Source: Alphaproteobacteria bacterium
GTDB taxonomy: Bacteria; Pseudomonadota; Alphaproteobacteria; CALMVH01
DNA length: 64,000 nt
Direction: 5' to 3'
Assembly: GCA_965199335.1 (NCBI GenBank)
Contig: CBDAQZ010000004.1
Location: 448,666 to 512,665, forward strand
Shown here piece after piece: positions 3,613-57,005 of this stretch. Every line of letters begins with the position of its first letter. Position 1 is the stretch's first letter. The position numbers were made by a program, and so were the translations under genes. The notes beneath the pieces are model-generated. The model was not told where the DNA came from, did no database searches, and saw only the letters and a program-made list of their open reading frames with translations.

Positions 3613-3737
3613 TCAATCCTCTCCCTCATGGGAGAGAGCAGGGTGAGGGTGTGCCGCAGCACCGCCGTAGCCCACACCCACACCCACACCCGGCGGGCTT
3701 GCGCCCGCCGACCTGTCCCATGAGGGAGAGGTGAAAT
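3613..3737. repeat. Structured intergenic element with nested inverted repeats and a (CACACC)4 tract
   Basis: Outer inverted repeat cctctccctcatggga (3617-3632) pairs with cccatgagggagagg (3717-3731). Inner inverted repeat gggtgagggtgtg pairs with cacacccacaccc, and a central hairpin cggcgggcttgcgcccgccg is also present. Confidence 0.5.
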
Positions 3738-4463
3738 TCACTCCGGCAAATCCAGCCAAGAGCGGATGCAGCGTTCGACGACGCGGGCCAGGAAGCCGAC
3801 CAGTTCGGTGCCCTGCCCGTCCTGGAACAGCTCATGCGAACGGCTGCCGAAGGCCAGCATGCCGACCGGCGCGTGGCGGGAGGCTTCCAGCCGCAGCAGC
3901 GCCTCGGACCGCACCAGCCCCGCGCCTTCGCCGTAGATCTCGGGATCGCCCTCGATGTCGCTGCGCAGCAGCACGTCCTTCCTACCCATCCAGAAATCGA
4001 CGCTGCCGGGCGGCACGATGCGGATATCGGCGCGGCTCATCGCCAGCACTTCCGGATCGTCGGCCTCGATCATCAGCGCCGCGATGTCGACATCCAGGTA
4101 CACCGCCAGGTCGCCAGTGACGGAGGTTATCATCTCCTCGAAGCTTTCGGCCTCCAGCAGCGCCAGCACGCAGGCATGGATGCGTGTCAAGAGGTTCAGG
4201 TTGGTGCGCGCATGCGCGATCATGTCCTGCCGTTCCTCGACCCCGCGCGCCAGGTCGGTCTGCAGCCGGCGCAGCATGAAGTGCTGGAAATCGACCACGC
4301 TGTTCGAGCGGCTATGCTTCTGCGTCGCGGGCGGCACCAGCTTGGCCAGCACGTCGGGATGCGCGGCGAAGAAATCGGGATGGCTGGCCAGATAGTCGAT
4401 CACCTCGTCCGCGCGGACCGGCGGGGAGGCGTTTCCGGTTGTCTCTGTAGAATCCTGGGCCAT
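3738..4463 (-). CDS. DUF484 (YigA-like) protein
   Basis: The N-terminus after M38 reads MAQDST...VIDYLASHPDFFAAHPDVLAKL, typical of DUF484, and the gene sits directly upstream of xerC. The annotated ORF is longer (to 4574) but would overlap the priA start. Confidence 0.65.
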   Translation of the reverse strand: MAQDSTETTGNASPPVRADEVIDYLASHPDFFAAHPDVLAKLVPPATQKHSRSNSVVDFQHFMLRRLQTDLARGVEERQDMIAHARTNLNLLTRIHACVLALLEAESFEEMITSVTGDLAVYLDVDIAALMIEADDPEVLAMSRADIRIVPPGSVDFWMGRKDVLLRSDIEGDPEIYGEGAGLVRSEALLRLEASRHAPVGMLAFGSRSHELFQDGQGTELVGFLARVVERCIRSWLDLPE

Positions 4464-4515
4464 GGTCCATGGTGAATCCGCCACGGCGCGTTTGCAAGCC
4501 AAATCGTTAATCATT

Positions 4516-6723
4516 ATGCCCATTGTACCGATGGACACTTCGACACCCACACCGCTTTCGGGACGCGCCGGCATATTGCTGCCGGTCGCGGTCGACCAGG
4601 TTTTCGACTATGCCCTGCCCCAGGGCGTGGAACTGGCATCTGGCACGTTCGTCTCGGTACCGTTCCGCGGCAAGGGCACCGCCGTCGGCGTCGTGTGGGG
4701 CGCGGCGCAGGGCGACGTCGCGCCGGGCAGGCTGAAGACCATCGGCGACGTGCTGGATCTTCCGCCACTGACGCCGGAACTGCTGGAATTCGTCCGCTGG
4801 GTCGCCGCGTACACGATGACGCCGCTGGGCATGGTGCTGCGCATGGTGATGAGCGCCCCCGCCGCCTTCGGCACCATGCCGCAGCGAACGCTGTACCGGG
4901 TGCCTGACACGCTGGACGGCGAGCTGACCCCTAAACGGCAAGCGGTGGTTGCCGTGCTGCGCGACGGCCATGCGATGACGCTGACAGACCTGGCGCGGGA
5001 GGCGGCGGTCGGGCCTTCGGTGATCAAGGCCATGGCAGCGCAGGGCCTGCTGGAACCGGTCACCGCCCGACGGCGCTCCTTGCGCGCCGGGACGCTGGAC
5101 CCCGAATACCGCACGCCGCACTTGACGCTGGATCAGAACGTGGCGGCGTCGAAGCTGCGCGGCGCCGTGGCGCAGGACAGATACAGCGTCACATTGCTGG
5201 ACGGCGTCACCGGCTCGGGTAAGACGGAAGTCTATTTCGAGGCGATCGCGCAGGCGCTTGCCATGGGGAAACAGGCGCTGATCCTGGTGCCGGAGATCGC
5301 ACTGTCGGCGCAGTTCGTCGAGCGCTTCCGCCCGCGCTTCGGCGCCACCCCCGCCTTGTGGCATTCCGACCTGACGCCCGCCCAGCGCCGCGACACCTGG
5401 CGCGGCGTGGCTGAGGGCGGCGTGCGCGTGGTGATCGGCGCGCGTTCCGCCCTGTTCCTGCCCTTCGCCGAGCTGGGCGTGATCGTGGTCGACGAGGAGA
5501 ACGACCCCAGCTTCAAGCAGGAGGAACAGGTCATCTACCAGGCGCGCGACATGGCGGTGGTGCGCGCCAAGCTGGAAGATCTGCCCGCTGTGCTGGTATC
5601 GGCGACGCCCTCGCTGGAGACGCTGGCGAATGTCGACGCGGGGCGCTACGTCCACCTGACCCTGCCCGCGCGCTTCGGCGGCGCGTTGCTGCCCGCGATC
5701 AGGCTGCTGGATTTGCGACAGACGAAGCTGCCGGTGCGGCGCTTCCTGTCGCAGCCGCTGGAAGAGGAGCTGCGCGAGACGCTGGCGGCGGGCGAGCAGA
5801 GCCTGCTGTTCCTCAACCGGCGCGGCTATGCGCCGCTGACCCTGTGCCGCACCTGCGGCCACCGGATGAAATGCCCCAACTGCACCGCCTGGCTGGTGGA
5901 ACACCGGTCGCAGGATCGGCTGATCTGCCATTACTGCGCCCATACCGAGCGCATCCCCGAACGCTGCCCGGAATGCGATTCGGAACATTCGATGGTCCCG
6001 GTCGGCCCGGGGGTCGAGCGCATCGCCGAGGAGGTGCGCGCCCTGTTCCCCGAAGCACGGCTGGCGCTGATGGCCAGCGACCTGATGGAGGGACAGGGCG
6101 TGCTGGCCGACACGTTGCGCCGCATCGGCAGGAACGAGATCGACATCATCGTCGGCACCCAGATCATCGCCAAGGGCCACCATTTTCCCAAGCTGACGCT
6201 GGTCGGTGTCATCGATGCCGATCTGGGCCTGGCCGGCGGGGATTTGCGTGCCGGTGAACGCACCTGGCAATTGATGCAACAGGTCGCCGGCCGCGCCGGC
6301 CGCGCCGAGCACGAGGGCCGCGCCCTGATCCAGACCTACGATCCGCAGCATCCCGTGATGCAGGCGCTGGTATCGGGCGACCGCGAACGCTTCATGCAGG
6401 TGGAGAAATCCGAGCGCCTGTCGGCCTCGATGCCGCCTTATACGCGGCTGGCGGCGCTGATCGTCTCGGGAGAGGACAAGCTGGCTGTCGAGCAAACCGC
6501 GATCACCCTGGGCCGGGTCGCGCCGCATGGGCCGGAGATCCGCGTCCTGGGCCCCGCCCCCGCGCCGATGTTCATGCTGCGCGGCCGCTTCCGCCACCGC
6601 CTGCTGCTGCGGACCGTGCGGACGCTGTCGATCCAGGCGATCGTGCAGGACTGGCTGGACCGCGTCGAAGTCCCGAATGGCGTGCGCGTCCAGGTCGACA
6701 TCGATCCTTACAGCTTCATGTGA
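4516..6723 (+). CDS. priA: Primosomal protein N' (replication restart helicase PriA)
   Basis: A DEAD-like helicase carrying the 4-Cys zinc finger CRTCGHRMKCPNCTAWLVEHRSQDRLICHYCAHTERIPERCPEC. The start was placed at MPIVPMD to avoid overlap with the divergent DUF484 gene. Confidence 0.9.
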   Translation: MPIVPMDTSTPTPLSGRAGILLPVAVDQVFDYALPQGVELASGTFVSVPFRGKGTAVGVVWGAAQGDVAPGRLKTIGDVLDLPPLTPELLEFVRWVAAYTMTPLGMVLRMVMSAPAAFGTMPQRTLYRVPDTLDGELTPKRQAVVAVLRDGHAMTLTDLAREAAVGPSVIKAMAAQGLLEPVTARRRSLRAGTLDPEYRTPHLTLDQNVAASKLRGAVAQDRYSVTLLDGVTGSGKTEVYFEAIAQALAMGKQALILVPEIALSAQFVERFRPRFGATPALWHSDLTPAQRRDTWRGVAEGGVRVVIGARSALFLPFAELGVIVVDEENDPSFKQEEQVIYQARDMAVVRAKLEDLPAVLVSATPSLETLANVDAGRYVHLTLPARFGGALLPAIRLLDLRQTKLPVRRFLSQPLEEELRETLAAGEQSLLFLNRRGYAPLTLCRTCGHRMKCPNCTAWLVEHRSQDRLICHYCAHTERIPERCPECDSEHSMVPVGPGVERIAEEVRALFPEARLALMASDLMEGQGVLADTLRRIGRNEIDIIVGTQIIAKGHHFPKLTLVGVIDADLGLAGGDLRAGERTWQLMQQVAGRAGRAEHEGRALIQTYDPQHPVMQALVSGDRERFMQVEKSERLSASMPPYTRLAALIVSGEDKLAVEQTAITLGRVAPHGPEIRVLGPAPAPMFMLRGRFRHRLLLRTVRTLSIQAIVQDWLDRVEVPNGVRVQVDIDPYSFM

Positions 6724-6772
6724 CAATAAGAGAGTTTTGACTCACAAACAATTTGATGATATATGATGGAAT

Positions 6773-7162
6773 ATGAATATCTCAGGCAAATGGATCCTGC
6801 CCTTTTGGCTTGCTGGCTGCGCCCTGGCGGTCTGGCATCTGCTGTATTTGGCGGGCTATAAAATCGACCTGGAGGGCTGGTTGTTCACGGCTTTCCTGTT
6901 GCTGTGCTATTCGTTGCCGCTGTTCCTGCTAACCAAATTTCCCCTTCCTGCGGAACGGTCGCCCGAGCGCTTGATCCTGCTGGCCATGCGGGTTTTGATC
7001 ATCGCGATCAGCCTAGCCACGCCATTGGTTCGGTTCCTGCCCAACTACAAGTCGTCAGCGATGGAAGCGCTGGTATACATCGCTTATCCCGTCGTCGAAG
7101 TCGGTATCATCGGGGTCATGGTGTTGATCGCAGGCGGTATAAAGCAATTCGGAAAACATTAA
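6773..7162 (+). CDS. Hypothetical small integral membrane protein, about four TM segments
   Basis: Hydrophobic 129-aa ORF sitting in a clearly AT-richer segment (6727-7230) than the flanking DNA. Confidence 0.4.
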   Translation: MNISGKWILPFWLAGCALAVWHLLYLAGYKIDLEGWLFTAFLLLCYSLPLFLLTKFPLPAERSPERLILLAMRVLIIAISLATPLVRFLPNYKSSAMEALVYIAYPVVEVGIIGVMVLIAGGIKQFGKH

Positions 7163-7230
7163 TTATTGGTAAATATCTATTGACTTTTTCTCTCTCATAA
7201 AGCAGACTGTGCGACTTTCTGGAGAAATTT

Positions 7231-7878
7231 ATGACCCACATCTATTCACCCCGCCACGAGGCTTACGCAATCGCCAGCCTAGAGCGGCCGCCAGTAACTC
7301 TGGAAGACTGCATGAAGCCGGTTCATGACTCGACCTTGTACAAGGTCGTTCAGCACGGCCTGAAAATGTTCGGTGAAATGGAAACCGTCGAAGTCAGGCC
7401 CCATTCCTGGCTGCTCGAATCCAAGAACAGGGAGAACATACAGGTCGTCCTGGCCAACGACGAAGAGTCCAAGCAGGTCGGACAGGTCAATTTGTCTTTT
7501 GAACCGGATGGCAAGATCACGCTGGAAGCTCACACCAGGAACAATCCTCTCTATCCCGACCTGACACGACGTTTCGACCTCAACGAGAGGACGAAGCGCT
7601 TGATCGGAACCGGTGAGATAACCGGCCCAAGAAGCGTGGAAAACCAGATCGCCGATGGCAGGGCGATCCTGCAGCAGATTGGCGAGGTCTTTTCGCGTGA
7701 TTCGTTGCGGTTCGCGGATGAGTTTCCCAGCACGATGAAAACTATAGATGCAGGCCTCGACAAGTTCCGCACCGATAGCCCGGCAGGCAAGGCGCAGGCT
7801 GGTGCCGCGGCATTGCGACAGCAGATAATCGTGCCCCTGTCCGGACCGACTGCCGCCGGAATGGGAAAGCCGGAATAA
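7231..7878 (+). CDS. Hypothetical protein; no family recognised
   Basis: Clean 215-aa ORF in the low-GC islet. No motif was recognised by eye. Confidence 0.4.
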   Translation: MTHIYSPRHEAYAIASLERPPVTLEDCMKPVHDSTLYKVVQHGLKMFGEMETVEVRPHSWLLESKNRENIQVVLANDEESKQVGQVNLSFEPDGKITLEAHTRNNPLYPDLTRRFDLNERTKRLIGTGEITGPRSVENQIADGRAILQQIGEVFSRDSLRFADEFPSTMKTIDAGLDKFRTDSPAGKAQAGAAALRQQIIVPLSGPTAAGMGKPE

Positions 7879-7909
7879 AATTGACGTTTGCATGGACGTT
7901 TCAGTCGGA

Positions 7910-8458
7910 ATGACTGCAGACCGGCCGTTTTATACCATTGGGCATTCGAACCGCACCCTCGTGGATTTCGTCGCCTTGTTGCGCGAAGCCGGAGTCGCCA
8001 TGCTTGTCGATGTCCGCACCGTGCCGCGTTCGCGCTACAATCCGCAGTTCAACACCGACAGCTTGCCCGCGGCCCTTGCCGAGCATAGGATAGGTTATCG
8101 GCACTTGCCTAGTCTTGGGGGTCGTCGCCCCCAGACCCATGCCCCCTCGCCCAACGATTTCTGGGAGGCAGGCGGCTTCCGCAGTTTCGCGGATTACGCG
8201 CATACGGCTGAGTTTCGTACGGGACTGGCCGGGCTGCTATCGCTACAAGAGGCGCATTCCTGCGCGATCATGTGCGCAGAGGCGAAATGGTGGCAATGCC
8301 ATCGCCGCATCATCACCGACTATCTGCTGGCAGCGGGCGGCACCGTTCGGCACATAGTGGGCATGGGCGACATTCAGGACGCCGTAATGACGCCACAGGC
8401 GCGCAACGGGCCGGACGGCACTCTGGTCTATCCCACGCAAGCGCCCCTGCTGCTTTAG
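7910..8458 (+). CDS. DUF488 family protein
   Basis: FYTIGHSNRT...LVDVRTVPRSRYNPQFN...CAEAKWWQCHRR matches the DUF488 signature. The start was taken at the second Met. Confidence 0.6.
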   Translation: MTADRPFYTIGHSNRTLVDFVALLREAGVAMLVDVRTVPRSRYNPQFNTDSLPAALAEHRIGYRHLPSLGGRRPQTHAPSPNDFWEAGGFRSFADYAHTAEFRTGLAGLLSLQEAHSCAIMCAEAKWWQCHRRIITDYLLAAGGTVRHIVGMGDIQDAVMTPQARNGPDGTLVYPTQAPLLL

Positions 8459-8459
8459 A

Positions 8460-9953
8460 TCAACCCGTCCCGGCGATGGCGAAGGTTTTCACCGGGCCGC
8501 TGCTGCCATTGGCCATGACGCAGTTGCGGCCATTGTGCTTTGCCGCATAGAGCAGCGTATCGGCGGCCGCAATCAGTCCCTGCGCCTCGTTTTCCAGCGC
8601 GGGCATCTGCATCTCGACGCCCAGGCTGATGGTCACTCGTCCATCGGTAGTGCCAGCATGTACGATCTGCAGCGATTCGATGCGCCGGCGGATCTGCTCG
8701 GCCACGAAACGCGCGCCCTCCAGCTGGGTATGCGGCAGTAGGACCACGAATTCCTCACCGCCGTAGCGCGCCACCAGATCGCCCGGACGGCGCACCACCT
8801 CGGCCAGCCCGGCGGCCACGGCCTTCAGGCATTCGTCGCCCGCCGGATGGCCGTAACGGTCGTTGAATAGCTTGAAACAGTCGATATCGATCATGATCGC
8901 GCTGAGCGGCGTCCCGTCGCGGATACCGCGCTTCCATTCGCGCTGCAGGAATTCGTCGAACATGCGACGATTGGCGATGCCGGTCAGCTGGTCGGTCGCC
9001 GCCAGCTGACGCAACTGGTCCTGCGCCGTGCGCAGGCTGCGTTCCAGCCGCTTGCGTTCCGACAGGGCGATGGCGATCGGCAGGGCCATGCAGACGCAGG
9101 TCAGGATGAAGAACTGCGCCATCAGAATGCGCTGCCCCTCGGTCGCACTGAGCATCAGCATGAAGGGGCCGGTGCCGTGCAATGTGAAGAAGCTGACAAC
9201 CACGCCCACGATGAATAGGCCGACGGTCATGCCGGGAAAACCCAGCTGGAAGACGACCAGCGCCACAAAGGGGAAGACGAGGAACAGCAAGGGCAGCTGC
9301 GTCTGCGCAAAGACGAATGTCGTCGCCATGGCAAGCAGCAACAGGACGGTGGCCGTCCTGACAAGGGCCGTTCGCTTCAGCAGGGGACCGAAATCCTTGA
9401 ACAGTACGGTCAGCGTCAGTGGCGTCTCGATGGCCAGGCCCATGCCATGCGCCAGATACCAGACCTGAACCGTCTGCATTATGGGCGTGCCGGCGATATA
9501 ATAGCGGGCCGCGCCGGCCACGACGACGCTGACCGCGGGCGCGACCAGGAAGGCGATCATCATGCGCAGGGCTGAACCGCGATCGGTAAAGTGATGGGCC
9601 GGCCGGTCGGGCCGATAAACGATCATCGCCGCGCACAATATCTCGACGATGTTCGCACTGCTGAGCGCCAACGTGAGCGCGGGCACCGAGCCACGCAGGA
9701 CGCCGACCGTGGCGTTGGCCGTGAAACCCGTCAGTAAATAAGCCACCCAGTAACGCCGGGGGCAAGTCAGCAGCACGCCCAACGTGATGCCGTTGGCAAA
9801 CCATACCACGGCAATGTGGCTTTTGACGGTTACCAGGTTGGATGCGATGAAACTGGCTATCGCCACCATGACCGCCAGGCCGATGATGCTGGAAAGCGGT
9901 GGACAGTAAGTCCGCAGGGAAAACGATCCCGATAGGTCCAGGCTTCTGTTCAC
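8460..9953 (-). CDS. Membrane-anchored diguanylate cyclase with a GGDEF domain
   Basis: The N-terminal half is a polytopic membrane sensor domain (MASE1-like). The C-terminal half is a GGDEF domain with RYGGEEF, and the cyclase lies in a convergent arrangement against the DUF488 gene. Confidence 0.85.
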   Translation of the reverse strand: MNRSLDLSGSFSLRTYCPPLSSIIGLAVMVAIASFIASNLVTVKSHIAVVWFANGITLGVLLTCPRRYWVAYLLTGFTANATVGVLRGSVPALTLALSSANIVEILCAAMIVYRPDRPAHHFTDRGSALRMMIAFLVAPAVSVVVAGAARYYIAGTPIMQTVQVWYLAHGMGLAIETPLTLTVLFKDFGPLLKRTALVRTATVLLLLAMATTFVFAQTQLPLLFLVFPFVALVVFQLGFPGMTVGLFIVGVVVSFFTLHGTGPFMLMLSATEGQRILMAQFFILTCVCMALPIAIALSERKRLERSLRTAQDQLRQLAATDQLTGIANRRMFDEFLQREWKRGIRDGTPLSAIMIDIDCFKLFNDRYGHPAGDECLKAVAAGLAEVVRRPGDLVARYGGEEFVVLLPHTQLEGARFVAEQIRRRIESLQIVHAGTTDGRVTISLGVEMQMPALENEAQGLIAAADTLLYAAKHNGRNCVMANGSSGPVKTFAIAGTG

Positions 9954-10030
9954 ACCGGCATGAATAACCCGGTTTTGGCTAAATCTTGCTTAACCGCGCC
10001 TTTAAACGACCGTCTTTACCGAAATCGACC

Positions 10031-10480
10031 TTACTTAACGCCGGTCGCAGGTCCGGGCGGGCCGCTATTGTCCTTGGTCAGGCGGATTTCGATGCGGCGG
10101 TCGCCCGTGGGGCCCAGCGTATCGTTGGCAGGACCCAGCGGCAGGGTGGTGATGATAGTGGGATCGACACCCAGATCGACCAGGGTTTTCTGTACCAGAG
10201 CGGTTCGGTGGCTGGAGACCTGATGATTTGCCGCCTCGGACCCGACCCTGTCGGAATAGCCGGCGATGATGATGCTTTGCGGCCGCAGCTTGCCGACCGC
10301 GTCGGCGGCGCGCTGCACGATGGCATAGCCATCCGGCGTCAGCTCGGCGCTGTTGGTTTCGAAAAACACGTAATAATCCATAGGGATGCCTGAATAATCC
10401 TCCTGATGATGCGCGCAGCCATCCAGGGTCAGGGAAAGCGGCGCGAATACGAAAAGCGTCAAAAGAAGAAGCCGGCGCAA
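10031..10480 (-). CDS. OmpA-family lipoprotein with a peptidoglycan-binding OmpA_C-like domain
   Basis: Signal peptide with lipobox LDGC, followed by an OmpA C-terminal domain carrying the motif NxxLSxxRA-like SHRTALV. Confidence 0.65.
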   Translation of the reverse strand: MRRLLLLTLFVFAPLSLTLDGCAHHQEDYSGIPMDYYVFFETNSAELTPDGYAIVQRAADAVGKLRPQSIIIAGYSDRVGSEAANHQVSSHRTALVQKTLVDLGVDPTIITTLPLGPANDTLGPTGDRRIEIRLTKDNSGPPGPATGVK

Positions 10481-10636
10481 TGGAAACTCCCTGGCTGTAA
10501 CCTAAACTCTTGTACGCGATGCTCTAAGACGGCGTTGCGCACCTTGGAAGTGTATGTTAGACGAACGCCGTGCAAGCGCAACCGTCTTTCCCGGTGGGCT
10601 TGTTCCACAAAATGTAATTGGCTTTAGAGGCAGAAT

Positions 10637-11185
10637 TTGAGTTCTACCCATACAGCTGTCGCGCGGCGATACGCGGAAGCATTGTTCGAGCTTGCCGAGG
10701 GGCCGGCGCTCGACGGTGTTGCGCGTGACATCGAGGCTTTGCGCGGCATCCTGGCGAAAAGCGCCGACCTGCGCCGCATCGTCGCCAGCCCGCTGGTGTC
10801 GGGCAAGGGTCGTGAAGCCGCGATCAAGGCCATCGCCGAACAGGCGCAGTTCGGCGATATTACCCGCCGTTTCCTGGGCGTGGTCGCACATAACAACCGG
10901 CTGGGCGACATCGGCGACATCGTCGCCGCCTTCCTGAGCGAGGTCGCAGATCGCCGCGGCCTGAAGCAGGTCGAGGTCACTTCCGCCACCCCGCTGGACG
11001 AGGGCCGGCGCGCCGCGATCGAGGCCGGCCTGAACCAGGCGCTGGCGGCGAAGACCGTGCTGACCCTGAAAATAGATCCCGCCATCATCGGCGGCCTTGT
11101 CATCCGCGTCGGCTCACGCCTGATCGACGCATCCGTAAAAACCAAGCTGGACCGTCTGGCACGCGTCCTTAAAACAGCAGCCTAA
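10637..11185 (+). CDS. atpH: F0F1 ATP synthase subunit delta (OSCP)
   Basis: The N-terminus reads ...ARRYAEALFELAEG, and the gene sits directly upstream of atpA. The start is probably non-ATG. Confidence 0.85.
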   Translation: MSSTHTAVARRYAEALFELAEGPALDGVARDIEALRGILAKSADLRRIVASPLVSGKGREAAIKAIAEQAQFGDITRRFLGVVAHNNRLGDIGDIVAAFLSEVADRRGLKQVEVTSATPLDEGRRAAIEAGLNQALAAKTVLTLKIDPAIIGGLVIRVGSRLIDASVKTKLDRLARVLKTAA

Positions 11186-11197
11186 CTGGAAGACTGA

Positions 11198-12733
<1,536 letters not shown>

Positions 12734-12820
12734 TGTCTTTTGTTGACCCGTCATCCTGGACAGGCCCGCAGGGCGGCGCTTCGGGATTTATAGCCCGCTT
12801 TCCGCAAGGGCGGAACGATG

Positions 12821-12849
12821 GACCCCGGATCAAGTCCGGGGTGACGATG
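12821..12849. repeat. Half-copy of the dispersed CCGGGATGAC palindromic element, copy b
   Basis: The sequence is gaccccggatcaagtccggggtgacgATG. It directly abuts the predicted start codon of the inserted ORF at 12847. Confidence 0.45.
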
Positions 12850-13302
12850 TACGCGGCCATATTGGTCGCGACCGCTACACCGCAGGCAGTGCGGGCGGAC
12901 CCCTGCCTTGCCTATGGCGAACAGACGACGCTATCGGGCACGATGGCCATGGTATCGCCATGCCCGTCCGCCGAGGAACCTGGCCTGCATCAGCGCGCCT
13001 GCAAGGATTCGATGCCGGCCCGCCGAGTGCTTGTCCTGCCACAGGCGATCTGCGTCATCCAGGACGGCGGACTCCACCTCGATGCCGCGACCGAGTCCGT
13101 GACGGAAGTCGAACTCGATTATCCTGGCCACAACCCCTTGCCACCGGGCAACTACAATCTTCCGGCGGAGGTTTTTCTTGCACCGGGGAGCAAAGTGACG
13201 GCGGTAGGCAAGCTGGCTCATGGCAAGGACAATTTCTGGGTGACGGATTATGTTTTCAAGGCAATATCGGTAAAGGCGCATAGCGATCATGCCCAGCCTT
13301 AA
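12847..13302 (+). CDS. Hypothetical secreted Cys-containing protein inserted between atpA and atpG
   Basis: Signal peptide MYAAILVATATPQAVRA. The stop lies inside a degenerate duplicate of the atpG 5' end (atgcccagccttaaggac at 13289). The annotated ORF begins at 12733 but that would overlap the atpA stop. Confidence 0.45.
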   Translation: MYAAILVATATPQAVRADPCLAYGEQTTLSGTMAMVSPCPSAEEPGLHQRACKDSMPARRVLVLPQAICVIQDGGLHLDAATESVTEVELDYPGHNPLPPGNYNLPAEVFLAPGSKVTAVGKLAHGKDNFWVTDYVFKAISVKAHSDHAQP

Positions 13303-13398
13303 GGACATTCGCATCGGCTCGGCCAGGTCGCCGCTCGGGATTGCCTCGGCGATAGGGGCAGGCAGAGAAAGCGCGAAAGCAATTCGCGTAACCGTCCT

Positions 13399-14010
13399 AT
13401 GAAAAAGTTCTGGCCATTCGTACTGGGCGTTCTCGCGTTGCCGGTTTTGATCGTAGTCTGGATAATTGTGGGCACACGGCAGTACGATGTTGCCGATGTC
13501 GTATATACGGTGCATTCGGGGGACGATTTGTGCCAGACCTTTGCCTATTCCAGGCGGAACTCCTCTCCCTATGCTGTAATTGCCGGGTTAGGAATATGGC
13601 TTGATGAAACTGGCAATCTGGTTTCCGACATATCCTTTCAAGCAGAAGAACCCGATGCCATCGGGTCCGGCCATGCCGTTGAGTTAACGCCGTTGACGCT
13701 GGTCTTCAACAAAGTCGGCTGGTCGTTTCATAATGCCAAAAAAGTGGTTGATCTGAACGTGCTGAATCTGATGATCGCTGATGAAAAGCTTACCGGGAGC
13801 GTGAAGGATGAATTCCTTTCCGGGCACTTCAACATCAGGTCCGATGTAAGCTTCCTGAAGCCGAGCAAATACCACTTTCATGCGGCTGTACCCTCGGCTG
13901 TCGTGAACTCGTTCGAAAATTGTTTGAATGTCATAAGCGAAGCCAGGAATTTGACGCCTGGCAATGTTGCCGCACGTTATTCGGGAGGTAAGTTCGATGC
14001 CCAGCCTTAA
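13399..14010 (+). CDS. Hypothetical membrane-anchored protein in the lower-GC insert, overlapping the atpG start
   Basis: N-terminal TM helix, and lower GC than the surrounding operon. The gene ends FDAQP* within the genuine atpG start sequence. Confidence 0.5.
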
Positions 14011-19225: not shown

Positions 19226-19319
19226 TCGTCATTCAGGATCGCGCAGCGTATCCGGAATCCATACGGTCCATACACGTCAACAGGGTTATGGATTCCGGTC
19301 CTGCTGACCGGAATGACAG
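19226..19319. repeat. Dispersed palindromic element, copy d, closely related to copy c
   Basis: Ends cgtcattcagga and ccggaatgacag, with inner inverted repeats tccggaatccata and tatggattccgg. Confidence 0.6.
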
Positions 19320-19328
19320 TAACTCCAC

Positions 19329-19625
19329 ATGAATAACACCGCTGTACTGCTGATTCCCGAACACAGCCCCTGGCGCTACGCGCTGGTGTTCCCGATCATG
19401 TTCGTTCTGGGGCTGGAGCTGGTGCTGTTCGTGAGGCTGATCCGCAAGTACCGCAAGCCGTATATACCCCTGCTGGCGATGCTGGGCATGTTCGTGCTGA
19501 ACTTCGTGCTGTACGACCAGCTGCTGTTCCTGCCGCCGATCGAATTTCCTGCCGATGCTACGCCGCCACAACCGTCAGCGACACCCCCAGCACCCGTCCC
19601 CTCGTCTCCGGCCAAGCCTCACTAG
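19329..19625 (+). CDS. Hypothetical small membrane protein with a Pro/Ala-rich tail
   Basis: Two TM helices followed by a proline-rich C-terminus. Its start sits right after repeat copy d. Confidence 0.3.
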   Translation: MNNTAVLLIPEHSPWRYALVFPIMFVLGLELVLFVRLIRKYRKPYIPLLAMLGMFVLNFVLYDQLLFLPPIEFPADATPPQPSATPPAPVPSSPAKPH

Positions 19626-21563: not shown

Positions 21564-22160
21564 ATGAGTGCAAAGCGTTTGTTCGACAGGATCGCTGATC
21601 TGCGCCGGCCCTGTCTTGGCCTGACGGCCCTTGCCTTCGCGTTTTCCCCGCTGGCTGCCACCGCCGCCGAAACGTGCAAGCCGACCAGCGACGAGAAATC
21701 GGTCTTCATGCGCTCGCTGCAGACCGACCTGATGGTCGCCGCGCTGACCTGCAGCACCAGCGACCAGTACAATACCTTCATCCATCAGTTCCAATCGGTG
21801 TTGAAAACCGATGCCGACCATTTGCGCGGCTACTACAAGAAGCGTCGCGGCAAGGCCGGGGCGGAGGAACTGAACACCTTCGTTACGCACCTGGCGAACG
21901 ACGAGTCGGAGCGCAGCATCCAGCAGGGCCAGAGCGCCTATTGCGACAATGCCGCCAAGCTGTTCCAGACCGTGCTGGCAACGCCCGCCGCAAAGGTGGA
22001 GGATTATTCCACCACCCTGCCGCTATCGGGTGAGGCACCGGTACGCAAATGCGCCCTGCCCGCGGTTGCCGCCGCAACCCCGGTCAGCACCGCGTCCGCA
22101 CCCGTGCCTGCCGCGACGGACGGCAGCACTCCCGCCGAGGCGCCTGCTTCGTCGAACTGA
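21564..22160 (+). CDS. Hypothetical secreted protein with an Ala/Pro-rich C-terminus
   Basis: Signal peptide plus an RBS (aaagg) ahead of MSAKRL, and a terminator immediately downstream. Confidence 0.5.
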   Translation: MSAKRLFDRIADLRRPCLGLTALAFAFSPLAATAAETCKPTSDEKSVFMRSLQTDLMVAALTCSTSDQYNTFIHQFQSVLKTDADHLRGYYKKRRGKAGAEELNTFVTHLANDESERSIQQGQSAYCDNAAKLFQTVLATPAAKVEDYSTTLPLSGEAPVRKCALPAVAAATPVSTASAPVPAATDGSTPAEAPASSN

Positions 22161-22183
22161 CTGGTGGTTCGCTGACCGCAACG

Positions 22184-22214
22184 AAAAGCCGGCGCTGAGA
22201 CGCCGGCTTTTTTG
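22184..22214 (+). terminator. Rho-independent terminator
   Basis: The sequence is aaaagccggcgctgagacgccggcttttttg. Confidence 0.75.
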
Positions 22215-22233
22215 CGCGTGCAACTCTACTAAA

Positions 22234-22304
22234 CTGTCATCCCGGCCTGAGCCGGGATCTCTAACCGATCTGCAACAGATCCCGGGTCAGGCCCGGGATG
22301 ACGA
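22234..22304. repeat. Dispersed palindromic element, copy e, same architecture as copy a
   Basis: Reads gtcatcccggcctgagccgggatct...agatcccgggtcaggcccgggatgac. Confidence 0.6.
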
Positions 22305-22385
22305 AGATGTGCAGGCGGTTACAGGCAAACAAAAAGGCCGGTACTTTCGTACCGGCCTTTCCGTGCTTATCGCAGATCGACGTTC

Positions 22386-23486
22386 TTAGTGGAACACGAT
22401 CTCTACGCGACGGTTCTGAGGCTCCTTCACGCCGTCGCCGGTCGGGACGAGCGGATCGCGCTTGCCCTTGGCGTATACGACGATCTCGTTTGCCTTGACA
22501 CCCTGCTTCACCAGTTCGGCCTTGACCGATTCGGCGCGGCGCTTCGACAGCTTCATGTTGTAAGCGTCGGAGCCGACGGTATCCGTGTGACCGGTTACGT
22601 CGATGCGGGTGACGCCTGCGTTACCCTTGGCAGCGCCGGCAGCGTTGTCGACGATCTTCGTCGCGTCAGTCGTCAGGTTGTAACGATTGAAGTCGAAGAA
22701 CACGAGGTAGCTGCTCTGGGCAGGAACTGGCTTGGATGCGACCGGAGGCTGAGTCTTGCCCATCGGAGCAGGAGCCGGCTTCGGCTCGTTGAAGGTGTAA
22801 CGGACACCGGCAAGAGCTTCGTAGCTATGCAGGTGGTTGGTTACGTACAACGGCTTGTTGTCGCCGAAATCGGCTGCCGGTGTATCCATGTAACGGCCTT
22901 CGACCGTTGCCGCCCAGTTGTCGTCGAAGTTGTAAGCCAGACCAGCGATTGCCTGGTAGGCGAAAGCAACGTCGTTACCCGAAACTGCCGGACCCGTCGT
23001 ACCCTGGGGGTGCGTCGAGGTCTGGTTCCAGTAAGCAGCACCGACACCGACACCCACGTATGGGACGATCGGAACGTTGAGGTTTACCTGGGTCAGGTCG
23101 AAGTCATAGAACGCGTTGACGAAGCCCGTCCACACGCCGGTGCGGCCCGAAGACCCGACGCCGAGAGCGCGGTTGGTTACAGTCTCGCTGTAGCCGCCTT
23201 CGATTTCCGTGCGGATGTTGTCACCCCAGTTGTAACCAACAGCAGCATGAGCAGCCCAACCTGGGTTGTCATAGTTGATGGTCGAGCTGTTGGTGGCAGC
23301 GCCGCTGAAGCGGTTGCCGGTTGTGGTGGGGGCCAGATCGGTCTTCAGGCGATCGTTCCAGTTCAGACCACCATTGGCACCTACGTACCAACCGGCGGGC
23401 TCGTCTGCGTGGGCGCTGACGGTGAGTGCGCCAAACGAGACGCCTCCCAACAGCAGTGCGCCCATGAGGCGAAGCGATTTCTTCAT
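22386..23486 (-). CDS. OmpA-family outer membrane protein (beta-barrel plus OmpA_C)
   Basis: Signal peptide, an N-terminal barrel-like region and a C-terminal segment TGHTDTVGSDAYNMKLSKRRAESV...RRVEIVF. Confidence 0.85.
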   Translation of the reverse strand: MKKSLRLMGALLLGGVSFGALTVSAHADEPAGWYVGANGGLNWNDRLKTDLAPTTTGNRFSGAATNSSTINYDNPGWAAHAAVGYNWGDNIRTEIEGGYSETVTNRALGVGSSGRTGVWTGFVNAFYDFDLTQVNLNVPIVPYVGVGVGAAYWNQTSTHPQGTTGPAVSGNDVAFAYQAIAGLAYNFDDNWAATVEGRYMDTPAADFGDNKPLYVTNHLHSYEALAGVRYTFNEPKPAPAPMGKTQPPVASKPVPAQSSYLVFFDFNRYNLTTDATKIVDNAAGAAKGNAGVTRIDVTGHTDTVGSDAYNMKLSKRRAESVKAELVKQGVKANEIVVYAKGKRDPLVPTGDGVKEPQNRRVEIVFH

Positions 23487-25926: not shown

Positions 25927-26485
25927 AATTGTCCCGTCTGACCTGTGAACGAATGGGCCGGTATACTACACGAGCGTCGATCCACAACCGCGGAGCAGCC
26001 GTCCGGTTTAGACCCAGGATAGCAGCGCCGTCTCGCGTCCCGGAAACGCCACCTGCGCGAATGGCCAATCGTCGCGCAGCCAGTCCCAAGACGGTGAAAA
26101 GCGTCTGATCGAGTTGCCTTGCATGGCTGGCCCGGATCCAGCAGTACGCCTCGGCATCATAGCCGTCGTGGCCGGGATAGATGTAGGCACAGCCCAGGCA
26201 GAGGGACTCATCCCGCGCCATCACGGTGTAGGCGAAGGACGTGCGTTGCTGGAATTCCTTGTGATGCCAGCCGAGGTCGACCAGGTCCTGCTCGAACGTC
26301 AGGCCGGGCGACGGCCATTGAGAGTGTGGGCCGAAGACGCCCTGCAGATGATCGATGCTGCTCATCACGGCGTCGTAATCCTTGACCACGTCGGAAATGA
26401 CCAGGGGGCGCAGGATGAAATCCGGATGTTCCAGGCGCGGCGGCACCACGAAATCTGCGGGAACGAAAGGTGCGGATTTATCCAT
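25745..26485 (-). CDS. GNAT-family acetyltransferase-like protein; 3' end uncertain and overlaps the downstream gene
   Basis: MDKSAPF...WHHKEFQQRTSFAYTVMARDESLCLGCAYIYP reads like a GNAT core. The frame stays open for about 180 nt into the next gene, so this may be a frameshift or a genuine overlap. Confidence 0.35.
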   Translation of the reverse strand: MDKSAPFVPADFVVPPRLEHPDFILRPLVISDVVKDYDAVMSSIDHLQGVFGPHSQWPSPGLTFEQDLVDLGWHHKEFQQRTSFAYTVMARDESLCLGCAYIYPGHDGYDAEAYCWIRASHARQLDQTLFTVLGLAARRLAIRAGGVSGTRDGAAILGLNRTAAPRLWIDARVVYRPIRSQVRRDNYAHSFDRVRQHGGGDPHAACRSRSGHRHNAGRPQRGQVDGGVVGCGQRLPPVGAPDESRG

Positions 26486-26490
26486 GGGTT

Positions 26491-27318
26491 TCAATCGGCC
26501 TCGACATAATGGGATAAGGCCACGAAGCCATCGGCGGCGGCATAGACGACCTCGCGGTTGGCGTTGTGCACGCGCGTACCGGGCGCCAGTCCGTGCGCTT
26601 CCTCCCAGAAATCTATCTTGCGAACGAAATAGCGAACGCCGTCCAGATATACCGAGGGCTCGAATTTGGAAAACGCCCTGACCAGGCGGTCGATCTGCCG
26701 GACTGGCATCGTCCACTCGATCAGCTTGTCGGCGCGGGTCAGCATCGGCCAGTAGCTGCCCTGTCCCTGCGGCTGTTTGTTTGCCCAAGCGGTCCCTATG
26801 TCAGCGACAGTATTCAGCAGCATGGTCCTGGCAAGCATCTGACTGCGCAGCGACAACGATTCTAGCGTTTCGCGCTCCGACACGTCGAGCGTCGCTTGCG
26901 CCAGGATATGCCCTGCATCCCATGCGGGGGAAATCTCGTGGATGGTTACGCCGGTTTGCGGTAGTTGCTTCAGGATTACATGCGGTATCGGCCATGGCCC
27001 GCGCCCCTCGGGCAGCAACGAAGGATGCATGTTGATCGCGTAGCGTACGAAACCACGCCAGTCCGGCACCTTGAACGGATATGCGGCGCAAACGATCGCA
27101 TCGAACTCCAGCGTGCGGAAGCGGTCCAGGTCCGCCTGTTGCATCGGCGAAAACGTGACCGGCGCGTTCAGCGCCTGCGCCATGGCGATCACATTGACGT
27201 TGAAATCGTATTCGTTGTCCGTCTGCCAGGTGAAGAGCTCGACGATTTCATGTCCGGCCTCGATCAATCCGGCCATGCAGGAATGAAAGAAATCGTAGCC
27301 GCAATAGACTATTTTCAT
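26491..27318 (-). CDS. Formyltransferase-family protein (Fmt/ArnA N-terminal-like)
   Basis: INMHPSLLPEGRGPWP is a formyl_trans_N signature, followed by a C-terminal Fmt-like domain. Confidence 0.6.
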   Translation of the reverse strand: MKIVYCGYDFFHSCMAGLIEAGHEIVELFTWQTDNEYDFNVNVIAMAQALNAPVTFSPMQQADLDRFRTLEFDAIVCAAYPFKVPDWRGFVRYAINMHPSLLPEGRGPWPIPHVILKQLPQTGVTIHEISPAWDAGHILAQATLDVSERETLESLSLRSQMLARTMLLNTVADIGTAWANKQPQGQGSYWPMLTRADKLIEWTMPVRQIDRLVRAFSKFEPSVYLDGVRYFVRKIDFWEEAHGLAPGTRVHNANREVVYAAADGFVALSHYVEAD

Positions 27319-41947: not shown

Positions 41948-42781
41948 CTAAAGCTTCGGCACCCTCAGCGGTTTTGCGAACTTGTGAAGATGAGCCCCTT
42001 CGCTGTCGGCATTGGCAAGGCGACGGGGGAACGTGGAATGCGGATTGTCCCCTGTTGTAGACCAGTGATCGAACGTTTCGCCGGGATCATGATCTTTTTC
42101 ATAAGCCTTGCGGGAAAACGGCTCCAGTTTTGTCAGGGCTCTTTTGTAGCCCTTCGGGTTGGCGCTGAGTTCGACTGCCCCTACATCCGCATCGTCTTCA
42201 TAGACAGCCGAACCGATGGATTGCGGTCCCGGATTTTTCAAGAAGAGGGTCCGCTTTTCCTGAATCTGCGCCTCATGCACCAGTTCATGCGCAGTCGCGT
42301 AACCCAACTCGTCGCTTGTCATGTCCGGGCCCTTCTTGGATGTCAGGTCCTCGCGGTAAGTGATCAGGCCGCCGATATCCTCGTGTCCCCCCTGGACCGT
42401 GATTGGATCCTCGTTTGCATCCTTCGAGCTTGCCAGCGTGCCGTCCGCGCCCGGCTTCAGGGTGACGCGCACGATGTTGGGAACATGGTCCAGCCCCAGC
42501 TCGGCGGAATAGAGGGCGACCTTGTTCAGATAGGCCTTTTCCGCCCTGGAATGCTTGCGGTTGGGATCGTTGATCCATGTAAAATGATCGACCCCTTCCT
42601 CGGCGGGATGGGCCATGTCCTTCATGAATTCCGGCGTCAGCGGAAGGTTGGCCAGGGTTACGTGCGAGGCGCCTTTATTGTAAATCGACGCTTCGCCTTG
42701 ATCCGGCGCGGGCGCAGTGCTTTGCGACAGGGCCGATCCCGTCAGCAGAAGCGTAGCCAGAAGTCGTTTTCCCGCACTCAT
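41948..42781 (-). CDS. Hypothetical secreted protein with an HExxH motif, a possible metallopeptidase-like fold
   Basis: Signal peptide MSAGKRLLATLLLTGSALSQS and the motif ATAHELVHEAQ. The start was set at M25 of the longer ORF. Confidence 0.45.
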   Translation of the reverse strand: MSAGKRLLATLLLTGSALSQSTAPAPDQGEASIYNKGASHVTLANLPLTPEFMKDMAHPAEEGVDHFTWINDPNRKHSRAEKAYLNKVALYSAELGLDHVPNIVRVTLKPGADGTLASSKDANEDPITVQGGHEDIGGLITYREDLTSKKGPDMTSDELGYATAHELVHEAQIQEKRTLFLKNPGPQSIGSAVYEDDADVGAVELSANPKGYKRALTKLEPFSRKAYEKDHDPGETFDHWSTTGDNPHSTFPRRLANADSEGAHLHKFAKPLRVPKL

Positions 42782-42904
42782 GAGGCGAGCATAATACAAA
42801 TGCCCGTTGTGGTCCAGAAATGAGGCATTCAAAAGATTGACATTCGGCGGCAAGCCGGATACTTCGCCCGCACCCTAGTTAACCATCAACCTCGCGGGAT
42901 CATA

Positions 42905-45484: not shown

Positions 45485-45574
45485 CCGATTGCTCGAATTT
45501 TATTGTCGTTGCGGGTGGAGCGTAATACTATCTGCCGTGTTCAATATCGCGATCAGCCCATCGGGAGCCGGACT

Positions 45575-45964
45575 ATGAGTGAACTGGAAAAGCAGCTGGT
45601 GCAAGCAGAAGACAGGATTCTGGCGCTGGAAACAAGCGTTAACGACCAGGAAACGCGCAAGGAACTCAGCCCGGCACAGGCTGCCGCCGTCATGCAGCTG
45701 GTTCTTGCGGCGGAAACGGGATTGGGCGCCAATGCCGGCTCTGTACCTGCGGCCAACAACCTGAACGCCGGCGCTCTTGCCAGGGGTGCGATGGAACAGA
45801 TGTTCGAGGCCGACTTTCATCAGGGTGCGCCCGGCGCATCTCCCGGTCTGAGCGAACAGACGATGCGCGGCGAAATCGCCGCCGCGGCCAACACCGAACG
45901 AAGCCTCGTCCTTTTGGAAGAACGTGTGCGTGAAACGCTGGCATCGGCCTCTCCTTCCAACTGA
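45575..45964 (+). CDS. Hypothetical protein
   Basis: The start was set at MSELEKQLV, and a strong terminator follows at 45986. Confidence 0.35.
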   Translation: MSELEKQLVQAEDRILALETSVNDQETRKELSPAQAAAVMQLVLAAETGLGANAGSVPAANNLNAGALARGAMEQMFEADFHQGAPGASPGLSEQTMRGEIAAAANTERSLVLLEERVRETLASASPSN

Positions 45965-45985
45965 ATCGGCGCAGCAATTATAGGA

Positions 45986-46014
45986 AACCCGGCCTGAGTG
46001 CCGGGTTTTTTTTA
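45986..46014 (+). terminator. Rho-independent terminator
   Basis: The sequence is aacccggcctgagtgccgggtttttttta. Confidence 0.75.
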
Positions 46015-46110
46015 TGAAAGATTGATTTGCCAGTACGGTCTGAAAAGCAGAAAATGCTTCATGTACCAAGATAGTCTTGGTTGCCGGACAACGAAAGTAC
46101 AGAGAGTACC

Positions 46111-46473: not shown

Positions 46474-46689
46474 CAGCGCAGGATGGTCGTTAATGCGGCG
46501 TGTAATGTCGTGAAGGAAGCGGTGATTCCGTGTTGCAAAGATGCCAAGTCGGTAAAAAAACTTGGTTAAATATGCAATCAAGGCTTGAGCCGCGCGCCTC
46601 TCGCACGTATGAGACGTTCGGTATTCGGGCGCGACCCTGGCCACTCCGGGCAGGGCGTGCCGACCGATGACATTATAAGGAAGATGGAA

Positions 46690-56963: not shown

Positions 56964-57005
56964 TGTATTCGCTAAGCCAATCAGGTGAATTTAAAGGACG
57001 ATGAC

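Follow-up and report, generated by a model that had tools for sequence, protein, structure and literature searches.

Chromosomal hotspots of horizontal gene transfer (HGT) and small genomic islets combine conserved core flanks with variable content, deviant GC and codon usage and cargo of unknown function, and an integrase is dispensable for them. Dedicated work has reportedly been done on how HGT is organised along bacterial chromosomes. These features recur in the DNA described here, a stretch of 64,000 nucleotides (the window) from a sparsely sampled Rhodospirillales-like alphaproteobacterium. Within it lies an islet of three genes, all on the forward strand: a gene for an orphan membrane protein (orf129), a gene for an orphan soluble protein (orf215) and a gene of the DUF488 family. 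The accessory DNA extends from 6724 to 8459, and we consider it likely to be lineage-specific material that occupies a gene-turnover slot where the 3' ends of two convergent core genes, priA and MASE1-GGDEF, face each other.

The left core flank is priA (primosomal protein N'; 4462-6723, forward strand), identified by its Pfam PriA domains. The deposited product (P0004) is 730 aa long and 100% identical over that length, so that translation would begin at an internal start near 4531; homologues are 65-79% identical within the clade and about 50% identical in other Alphaproteobacteria. The right core flank is a MASE1-GGDEF diguanylate cyclase gene (8460-9953, reverse strand; Pfam), with orthologues 66-71% identical at the same position in three relatives (L025, L027 and L031); by this conservation it is assigned to the vertical backbone, outside the islet. 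An OmpA-domain lipoprotein gene (10031-10480, reverse strand; Pfam) follows between the slot and atpH; it also belongs to the backbone and was found in 6/6 clade relatives with a contig extending past priA. The next gene is atpH (OSCP/delta subunit; 10637-11185, forward strand), the first of the ATP synthase operon and a conserved partner of priA in Alphaproteobacteria, located 200-320 bp past priA in most of the Alphaproteobacteria sampled (L002-L022). The clade backbone can thus be written as xerC-DUF484-priA-slot-(GGDEF)-OmpA-atpH.

Analysis of base composition in 300-nt windows revealed a GC content of 0.66-0.71 over priA, successive values of 0.54, 0.53, 0.50, 0.48, 0.53, 0.54, 0.57 and 0.57 over 6601-7950, and a return to 0.63-0.68 from about 7950. 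An earlier note on this DNA had described an AT-rich segment from 6727 to about 7900, and the sliding-window values bear this out (0.48-0.57 over 6600-7950 compared with 0.65-0.70 in the flanks). The GC content of the slot as a whole was 0.559, compared with a mean of 0.622 for the whole window. The same note had called the codon usage atypical, and it is atypical, though not extreme. The three islet genes had GC3 values of 0.72, 0.70 and 0.71 (window mean 0.78 ± 0.09; priA 0.87) and a CAI-like index of 0.45-0.47 (window mean 0.58 ± 0.14; priA 0.69), which places both measures approximately 0.7-0.9 SD below the window mean. Dips of this kind are not unique to the islet; in several other ORFs of the window the GC content is no higher, as at 13399-14010 (0.50) and 56985-57527 (0.49). 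The spacer at 6724-6772, which makes up the left boundary of the accessory DNA, had a GC content of 0.29, and neither an intrinsic terminator nor a sigma-70-like promoter was predicted on its forward strand; scans of 6400-10700 for promoters and terminators gave nothing above chance expectation. The spacer between orf129 and orf215 (7163-7230) had a GC content of 0.32.

We compared the slot with its counterpart in six related contigs (L025 and L027-L031), all metagenomic, with priA products 65-79% identical to that of the window. The content differed in all six. L025 (priA 79%) carries a gene for a 219-aa orphan (GC 0.42, GC3 0.35) and a palindromic element, followed by GGDEF-OmpA-atpH, and the slot of L027 (priA 74%) is empty, with a spacer of 161 bp. 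The others contain a UDG gene (L028, priA 68%), a DUF1275 gene (L029, 67%), a 78-aa coiled-coil ORF together with a PEMT/ICMT-like membrane protein gene (L030, 66%) and a gene for a 136-aa orphan (L031, 65%). Slot GC was lower than locus GC in 7/7 genomes (the window and the six relatives). The nearest relatives keep priA and GGDEF-OmpA-atpH and lack the three islet genes; protein identity across the flanks was 58-96% in L025 and L027, and 66-96% for the flanking proteins of L025 compared with those of the window. The low GC content and a cargo that changes in every relative support the horizontal acquisition of the islet, which had been proposed from the window alone and is probable. Because close relatives lack them, orf129, orf215 and the DUF488 gene may be dispensable for core physiology, a tentative reading. 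A second insert was observed elsewhere in the window, between atpA and atpG: it is 1.2 kb long, holds two orphan ORFs and is absent from L025, L027, L030 and L031. Its presence in the same window points to orphan insertion as a habit of this genome.

Traces of earlier cargo were also identified. Over 51 bp, the spacer of L027 and the 78-aa gene of L030 share 80% identity, and in L025 an FTIGHS motif at 7186-7215, which abuts the GGDEF stop, was matched in 3 of 20,000 shuffles, the motif having been chosen post hoc. The family HMM (E 0.4-0.8) and DNA local alignment (p 0.1-0.2) were not significant for this putative DUF488 relic, so its assignment comes from the motif test and its position; L025 probably retains a 5' stub of DUF488 beside the GGDEF stop. 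By these comparisons the slot is seen to carry relics of the genes that once occupied it. The sequence in which genes came and went is drawn from few points, since the slot is seen in six related contigs that are all metagenomic.

Comparison of orf215 with the 219-aa orphan of L025 gave a marginal likeness (pairwise BLASTP E = 0.002; shuffle p = 0.012 for local and 0.017 for global alignment) with two co-linear patches, DSxxYKxVxxGLxxF near residue 33 and AxKxxxGxAALxxQ near the C-terminus, and the two may be very distant relatives. The likeness raises an alternative in which they are orthologous, a single very fast-evolving clade gene ancestrally paired with DUF488, so that the islet would be old and vertical. 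The E value, the shuffle tests and the two patches fit such descent, as does the fact that the two genes, similar in size (215 and 219 aa), lie on the same strand at the same place, past priA and before DUF488 or its relic, and the GC3 of orf215 (0.69) would then be partly ameliorated towards the host. However, a marginal likeness is hard to reconcile with flanking proteins that are 66-96% identical, and the slot of L027 is empty. The sharp gap in GC3 between L025 (0.35) and orf215 (0.69) also argues against simple vertical descent, being hard to reach vertically in genomes with a GC3 of about 0.85. We regard this alternative as unlikely, while granting it some weight.

The two orphan genes were analyzed individually. 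orf129 (6773-7162, forward strand) would encode a 129-aa protein with a pI of 9.2, and hydropathy analysis revealed hydrophobic segments at residues of approximately 8-27, 35-58, 63-90 and 97-126 (GRAVY 1.0), in keeping with the four-TM protein described earlier. A word-indexed HMMER search of 5.8e9 proteins returned only the self-match, and no family in Pfam, NCBIfam, PADLOC or PHROGs was matched at permissive thresholds. No similarity was detected to the membrane proteins in the slots of relatives (PEMT/ICMT, DUF1275). DUF2784, a small four-TM protein that often adjoins DUF488 homologues, was also considered and rejected as an identity for orf129; Pfam gave no match at E up to 1, and the hhalign probability was 0.3% when a DUF2784 profile built from seven sequences was used.

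orf215 (7231-7878, forward strand) would encode a 215-aa protein with a pI of 5.9, no TM segment and no apparent signal peptide. Its description as a soluble protein of no recognisable family holds, and orf129 is likewise without a family. The search of 5.8e9 proteins again returned only the self-match, and no relative was found in Pfam, NCBIfam, PADLOC, PHROGs, PDB, plasmids, phages or viral contigs. An exhaustive HMMER search of 1.84e9 representatives gave one other match (P0003, E = 3.8e-4), a 599-aa tandem-repeat protein in which the same 58 residues were matched six times; we put this match down to repeats or composition and discarded it as spurious. A tblastn match on a Methylobacterium aquaticum plasmid (E = 0.6), in frame within an aldo/keto-reductase (AKR) gene, was judged to be chance because orf215 matched neither any other AKR nor the AKR model of Pfam. 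A single-sequence AF2 model of orf215 had a pLDDT of 41 and no confident fold, and its likeness to the DnaK substrate-binding domain (Foldseek E at or above 0.01, TM about 0.15) was dismissed as merely an order of strands then helices. Each of the two proteins formed a one-member cluster, and both are, as far as sequence comparison can tell, true orphans among the sequences searched.

The isolation of these ORFs suggests an alternative in which orf129, orf215 or both arose by chance or are in decay within foreign or junk DNA, leaving DUF488 as the sole real gene. Both are singletons without a homologue in billions of proteins, the slot demonstrably gathers decaying relics, and orf129 has no convincing Shine-Dalgarno sequence upstream. 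Dinucleotide shuffles of 6724-7891 produced an ORF of at least 129 aa in 33% of cases, so the length of orf129 alone is not significant. In contrast, an ORF of at least 215 aa arose in 1.35% of the shuffles, and orf215 is preceded by a well-placed Shine-Dalgarno GGAG at 7221-7224, 6 nt before its ATG. Both ORFs also display strong three-base periodicity in the forward frame, with the coding order GC3 > GC1 > GC2 and a GC3 of about 0.70 (GC1/GC2/GC3 of 0.53/0.38/0.72 for orf129 and 0.59/0.42/0.69 for orf215), and orf129 has four evenly spaced segments of TM length. An antisense ORF at 7279-7893 (204 aa) had the mirrored GC-by-position pattern, and neither the alternative-frame nor the antisense ORFs of the islet, checked as decayed known genes, matched a Pfam family. 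The pLDDT of 41 for orf215 could be taken as a sign of a non-gene, but a low single-sequence value is expected for any orphan. We consider the non-coding alternative distinctly unlikely, and treat orf129 and orf215 as predicted protein-coding genes.

The third gene of the islet (7892-8458, forward strand; GC 0.62, GC3 0.71) would encode a 188-aa DUF488 protein (Pfam PF04343), or a shorter product from an alternative start at 7910 (MTADRPFYTIGHS). The match to PF04343 reached 112.4 bits, where the gathering threshold is 22.2 (E = 2.6e-32), and covered model positions 3-121 of 121. We aligned the protein with 77 metagenomic homologues and found that it retains TIGHS, DVR..P.S, LGG.R, MCAE and W.CHR, including C128, E130, C136, H137 and R138, at positions conserved in at least 95% of the alignment; the gene looks intact. 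Its nearest homologues are at most 60% identical. The tail-to-tail arrangement with the GGDEF cyclase gene was as first described, with a single nucleotide between the DUF488 stop (TAG, 8456-8458) and the convergent GGDEF stop (TCA, 8460-8462). Because the gap between orf215 and DUF488 is 13 nt (31 nt from the alternative start), the two are probably co-transcribed, a prediction of low confidence. A structure model of the DUF488 protein had a pLDDT of 57, and its top Foldseek matches in the PDB were Cys-phosphatases (PRL-3, PRL-1 and DUF442) at weak E values of 0.025-0.12. DUF488 has reportedly been placed in the rhodanese-phosphatase superfamily. On the strength of this placement and the non-significant fold matches, we tentatively suggest that the protein could be a Cys-dependent enzyme of the phosphoryl-transfer or phosphoesterase type, with a substrate that is either nucleotide-derived or a nucleic-acid end.

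The earlier note had also read the membrane-plus-soluble pair as an architecture typical of toxin/immunity, abortive-infection or other defence modules. Such a module might use orf129 as membrane effector or immunity protein, orf215 as sensor or antitoxin and DUF488 as enzymatic effector. The segment is indeed low in GC, variable and strain-specific, and hypervariable orphans seemingly lie upstream of DUF488 in two genomes. We ran PADLOC models on the three islet proteins with an E limit of 1 and on ten neighbours with a limit of 0.001, and the DUF488 protein matched PDC-M45B (E = 1.3e-30), PDC-M45C (E = 9.5e-10) and PDC-M19A (E = 5.4e-16). PDC-M45 and PDC-M19 are unvalidated PADLOC candidates for which no literature was found. 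However, PDC-M45 needs its A, B and C components together, whereas here the B and C models match one protein and no PDC-M45A is present among the 13 proteins scanned. The match to PDC-M19A covers positions 148-283 of 294, the DUF488-like C-terminal domain of a longer model, and no partner accompanies it; no further PDC-M45 or PDC-M19 component was identified in the 13 proteins.

Other evidence on the defence reading pointed the same way. orf129 and orf215 matched nothing in PADLOC, Pfam, NCBIfam or PHROGs, including any toxin-antitoxin or immunity domain at permissive thresholds. There was no enrichment of defence genes around the islet; none was detected within approximately 7 kb on either side, and the ten neighbours (priA, xerC, DUF484, GGDEF and the ATP synthase flanks) are housekeeping genes whose one PADLOC match, between the OmpA domain and the peptidoglycan-binding region of ZorB, is trivial. 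The cargo of relatives (UDG, DUF1275, PEMT/ICMT-like, other orphans) is not defence-like. The trio orf129-orf215-DUF488 was found nowhere else, and since the orf129-orf215 pair does not recur either, no argument can be built on a conserved architecture; close DUF488 homologues instead adjoin DUF2784, AddA-type helicase-nucleases, ClC channels and metabolic genes. Given the lack of defence neighbours, conserved pairing and mobile-element hallmarks, the defence claim is unsupported rather than refuted, and we judge it quite improbable.

The low GC content and variability of the segment could also be those of a prophage, integrative-element or transposon remnant. There is a gene for a tyrosine recombinase 3 kb upstream, and a family of MITE/REP-like palindromic elements is active in the clade. 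The recombinase gene, however, is a conserved xerC/xerD-type gene at the same place in all relatives, and the palindromic element of the window is at 3618-3731, outside the islet. No integrase or transposase, att-like or terminal repeat or adjacent tRNA was identified at the islet; direct or inverted repeats flanking it are no more than short chance matches, and the nearest tRNA is 4 kb away, past xerC. The orphans matched no PHROG, and DUF488 had a weak match (E = 6.5e-4) to a PHROG family of unknown function. No DNA or protein likeness was found in 50,697 phage records, 72,556 plasmid records or IMG/VR, and distant blastn searches of plasmids and phages with the islet DNA gave no match. An origin as such a remnant is extremely unlikely.

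The gene-turnover slot that we favour would work as follows. Foreign DNA landing between the convergent gene ends would be tolerated, because an insertion there interrupts neither a promoter nor an operon. With no integrase, tRNA target or flanking repeats, arrival was probably by illegitimate or flank-homology recombination, and the landed DNA would afterwards have been trimmed by deletion. DUF488 would be the older resident of the slot, given the probable 5' stub in L025, and the two orphans later or faster-changing cargo. With low confidence, orf215 might be a lineage-specific partner of DUF488, and orf129 an unrelated small membrane protein; adjacency is the sole basis for the orf215-DUF488 pairing, and DUF488 homologues have quite different neighbours. 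A bolder version holds that orf215 and the L025 219-aa orphan form a rapidly diversifying, clade-restricted family on which DUF488 depends as its obligate partner, be it inhibitor, antitoxin or specificity subunit of a Cys-dependent enzyme that modifies nucleotides or nucleic-acid ends. With or without orf129 the two would make up an undescribed conflict or defence module, and an arms race would have left its mark in L025 through allelic replacement of the partner and loss of DUF488. We regard this version as highly improbable.

If the turnover reading is correct, the gap between convergent core genes is a tolerated landing and decay site, even beside replication-restart and ATP-synthase genes. 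The locus would then be a clean, small instance of a common process, an ordinary feature whose cargo has no assigned role. orf129 and orf215 add two sequences to the stock of relative-less proteins, and orf215-DUF488 offers a specific, testable pairing for a widespread family without a demonstrated function, which would be of interest only if the pairing is functional.

Compared with the DUF488 family (PF04343; E. coli YeaO), for which no biochemical characterisation was found in the literature, the window protein aligns with the model over its full length and has all of its motifs, including the Cys/His/Arg cluster. Its neighbours set it apart from its homologues, as the copy here adjoins two orphans. 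Like ORFans and other taxonomically restricted genes, orf129 and orf215 are without detectable relatives in 5.8e9 sequences (and, for orf215, in 1.84e9 representatives). Unlike fresh imports such as the L025 orphan (GC3 0.35), they have a host-like GC3 of about 0.70 and are not obviously non-coding. The slot itself shares the properties of HGT hotspots set out at the beginning but, in contrast to the usual hotspots, it is tiny, with 0-3 genes in 0.16-1.7 kb, it has a replication-restart gene on one side and the ATP synthase operon on the other, and it was seen in seven genomes of an uncultured clade.

Composition profiling revealed that GC content falls from 0.66-0.71 in priA (4462-6723, + strand) to 0.48-0.57 at ~6600-7950 and returns to 0.63-0.68 beyond; the mean for the whole window is 0.622. 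The ORF list and Pfam placed three + strand genes after priA, namely orf129 (6773-7162; 129-aa four-TM protein), orf215 (7231-7878; 215-aa soluble protein) and a gene for a 188-aa DUF488 protein (7892-8458; Pfam DUF488, E=2.6e-32). Beyond these lie genes for a 497-aa MASE1-GGDEF protein (8460-9953, - strand; Pfam) and a 149-aa OmpA-domain protein (10031-10480, - strand; Pfam), and then atpH and atpA (10637 onward). Only 1 nt separates the DUF488 stop codon (TAG, 8456-8458) from the convergent GGDEF stop (TCA, 8460-8462), which leaves no room for terminators, so the transcripts must overlap or end within the opposite coding region. Taken together, the GC profile, ORF list, Pfam matches and stop positions confirm the earlier note's description of a low-GC islet of three genes after priA, with the DUF488 gene tail to tail against a GGDEF cyclase.

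Both orf129 and orf215 are probably real genes, orf215 more securely so. Codon-position GC followed the pattern GC3>GC1>GC2 in the + frame of orf129 (GC1/GC2/GC3 = 0.53/0.38/0.72) and orf215 (0.59/0.42/0.69), and was mirrored in a 204-aa antisense ORF; ORFs in other frames of the islet had no family matches. The orf215 ATG has a GGAG 6 nt upstream, and when the region was shuffled with dinucleotides preserved, ORFs of 215 aa or longer arose in 1.35% of the shuffles. ORFs of at least 129 aa were common in such shuffles (33%), so support for orf129 comes from its periodicity and from four TM-length segments at even spacing. The codon usage of the segment had been called atypical, and it was so without being extreme: in orf129 and orf215, GC3 (~0.70) and a CAI-like index (~0.46) were below the window means (0.78 ± 0.09 and 0.58 ± 0.14) and the priA values (0.87 and 0.69). 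Other window ORFs were equally or more deviant.

Database searches agreed with the view that the 215-aa protein has no recognisable family. Among 5.8 billion clustered proteins, orf129 and orf215 each matched only themselves and formed one-member clusters. An exhaustive HMMER search of orf215 against 1.84 billion representatives returned itself and one tandem-repeat protein (E=3.8e-4), which was judged spurious because the same 58 residues match it six times. For both proteins, Pfam, NCBIfam, PADLOC, PHROGs and PDB sequences yielded nothing credible even at permissive thresholds. No credible match was found for either protein in plasmid records (tblastn), for the islet DNA in plasmids and phages (blastn), or for orf215 in phage records (tblastn) and IMG/VR contigs; the sole plasmid match, in frame within an aldo/keto-reductase gene, was rejected as chance. 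A single-sequence AF2 model of orf215 was unusable (pLDDT 41) and gave no significant fold matches. On these searches, orf129 and orf215 appear unique to the window genome.

Across Alphaproteobacteria, atpH normally lies 200-320 bp after priA. A priA search revealed a small metagenomic clade whose priA is 65-79% identical to that of the window, with named taxa (Azospirillum, Roseomonas) from ~57% down. We compared the slot after priA in the window and in the six relatives' contigs that reach beyond priA (L025, L027-L031). All six relatives shared the order NicO-DUF1007 (not in L029), xerC, DUF484, priA, slot, OmpA (- strand), atpH, atpA, and the MASE1-GGDEF gene lies between slot and OmpA in the window, L025, L027 and L031. 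The window slot holds orf129, orf215 and DUF488; that of L025 (79% priA identity) holds one 219-aa orphan ORF (L025-219) and a palindromic element, L027 (74%) is empty (161 bp), L028 (68%) carries a UDG, L029 (67%) a DUF1275 protein, L030 (66%) a 78-aa coiled-coil ORF and a PEMT/ICMT-like protein, and L031 (65%) a 136-aa orphan. Slot GC was below locus GC in every genome compared. Analysis of L025 and L027 by tblastn revealed GGDEF, OmpA, atpH and atpA orthologues (58-96% identical) and no counterparts of the three islet proteins. From these observations, the GGDEF and OmpA genes are vertical backbone, and the accessory segment is exactly 6724-8459. The differing cargo between conserved flanks supports the proposal that the islet was acquired.

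Several results bear on the suggestion of a toxin/immunity, abortive-infection or defence module. In PADLOC, the DUF488 protein hits the candidate models PDC-M45B/C and PDC-M19A, but no other PDC-M45 or PDC-M19 component was matched among the orphans and ten neighbouring proteins, the islet is flanked by housekeeping genes, and the slot cargo of the relatives is not defence-like. No second occurrence of the orf129-orf215-DUF488 trio was found, and hence no conserved architecture. The islet showed none of the marks of a mobile element that were looked for, namely an integrase, att-like repeats, a neighbouring tRNA and phage families (PHROGs). Thus, a defence or toxin module is unsupported rather than refuted, as the genes concerned lack relatives.

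Two stretches in relatives speak to the history of the slot. In L025, the 30 bp directly before the GGDEF stop encode YFTIGHSHRR, preceded by an ATG, which aligns with the N-terminus of the window DUF488 (MTADRPFYTIGHSNR). The family-defining motif [FYILV]T[IV]GHS occurred in 3 of 20,000 shuffles of the L025 spacer; for a piece this short, neither the family HMM (E 0.4-0.8) nor DNA local alignment (p 0.1-0.2) reached significance. This piece is probably a DUF488 stub; DUF488 would then have been in the slot before the lineages of the window and L025 diverged. The priA-GGDEF spacer of L027 (161 bp; L027:12215-12375) contains a 51-bp stretch 80% identical to L030:9414-9464, part of the 78-aa coiled-coil ORF, and this is a second decay relic, the remnant of a lost gene. 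orf215 and L025-219 share position, strand and size and align weakly in two co-linear patches (pairwise BLASTP E=0.002; shuffle p=0.012 local, 0.017 global), with GC3 of 0.69 versus 0.35. Their homology is possible. If homologous, one of the two has probably been replaced with a version of external origin.

None of the strongly conserved family positions (C128, E130, C136, H137 and R138 among them) is lost from the window DUF488, and its closest metagenomic homologues are at most 60% identical. The neighbours of these homologues (loci L032-L111) were heterogeneous. In 22 loci, probably from a single clade, the next gene downstream encodes a four-TM DUF2784 protein; identification of orf129 as DUF2784 was rejected by profile comparison. 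In 12 loci an AddA/UvrD-PD-(D/E)XK helicase-nuclease (~1100 aa) lies upstream, its stop typically overlapping the DUF488 start, an arrangement suggestive of a tie to DNA-end processing in some members of the family. Further neighbours were ClC channels, an SDR and a cystathionine synthase. No biochemical function of DUF488 was found in the literature consulted. The family was reportedly placed in the rhodanese-phosphatase superfamily by Burroughs and Aravind in 2023. The top fold matches of a low-confidence DUF488 model were Cys-phosphatases, which were non-significant and are consistent with this assignment while proving nothing. A related paper from the Burroughs and Aravind group assigned DUF4326 to the rhodanese-phosphatase superfamily (PMC9503650). 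According to a preprint, no publication deals with E. coli YeaO, and DUF488 is found near prophages and defence islands; a second report describes a DUF488-HTH fused to a ParB-CTPase fold, which binds CTP.

A second low-GC insert (down to 0.50) of ~1.2 kb was observed between atpA and atpG within the ATP synthase operon (12733-14010). It encodes two family-less ORFs, of 189 aa (12733-13302) and of 203 aa (13399-14010), the latter with a TM/signal-like segment at its N-terminus, and is absent from L025, L027, L030 and L031; the atpA-to-atpG distance is 5 bp in L025 and ~150 bp in L027. At the atpG-atpD junction, small extra genes encode a 71-aa unknown (L027:17846-18061), a YCII protein (L030:14175-14525) and a GIY-YIG protein (L031:15043-15327); the clade's atp operon thus tolerates insertion at more than one junction. 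Compositionally deviant genes whose function is not assigned by family are dotted across the window: ORFs without a Pfam family and with below-average GC or GC3 lie at 1464-1796, 19233-19571, 21949-22389, 26114-26509, 41948-42853 and 45500-46547, and a partial methyltransferase-like ORF at 56985-57527 (GC 0.49). Together with the atp insert, these ORFs argue that the islet reflects a genome-wide habit and not a special module. We also observed palindromic elements of a MITE/REP-like family whose copies occupy different intergenic sites in three clade genomes: in the window between xerC and DUF484 (3618-3731), within the priA slot of L025 (L025:6914-7121) and after atpG in L030 (L030:13991-14112). 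Their termini are 20-nt hairpin-forming arms (CCTCTCCCTCATGGGAGAGG and its inverse), the interior forms a hairpin (GGTGAGGGTGT...ACACCCTCACC), and Rfam gave no match.

Most likely, the islet is accessory cargo occupying a slot that tolerates insertions, where the 3' ends of two genes converge. The slot would gain DNA through recombination, with no dedicated integrase involved, and deletion would trim what was acquired; DUF488 would be the older resident. Given the 13-nt gap between them, orf215 and DUF488 are probably co-transcribed; that they act together we can only infer, and a novel DUF488-partner system is a low-probability alternative. Among known features, the islet adds one more example to a familiar kind, the small horizontal-transfer or gene-turnover hotspot with orphan cargo.
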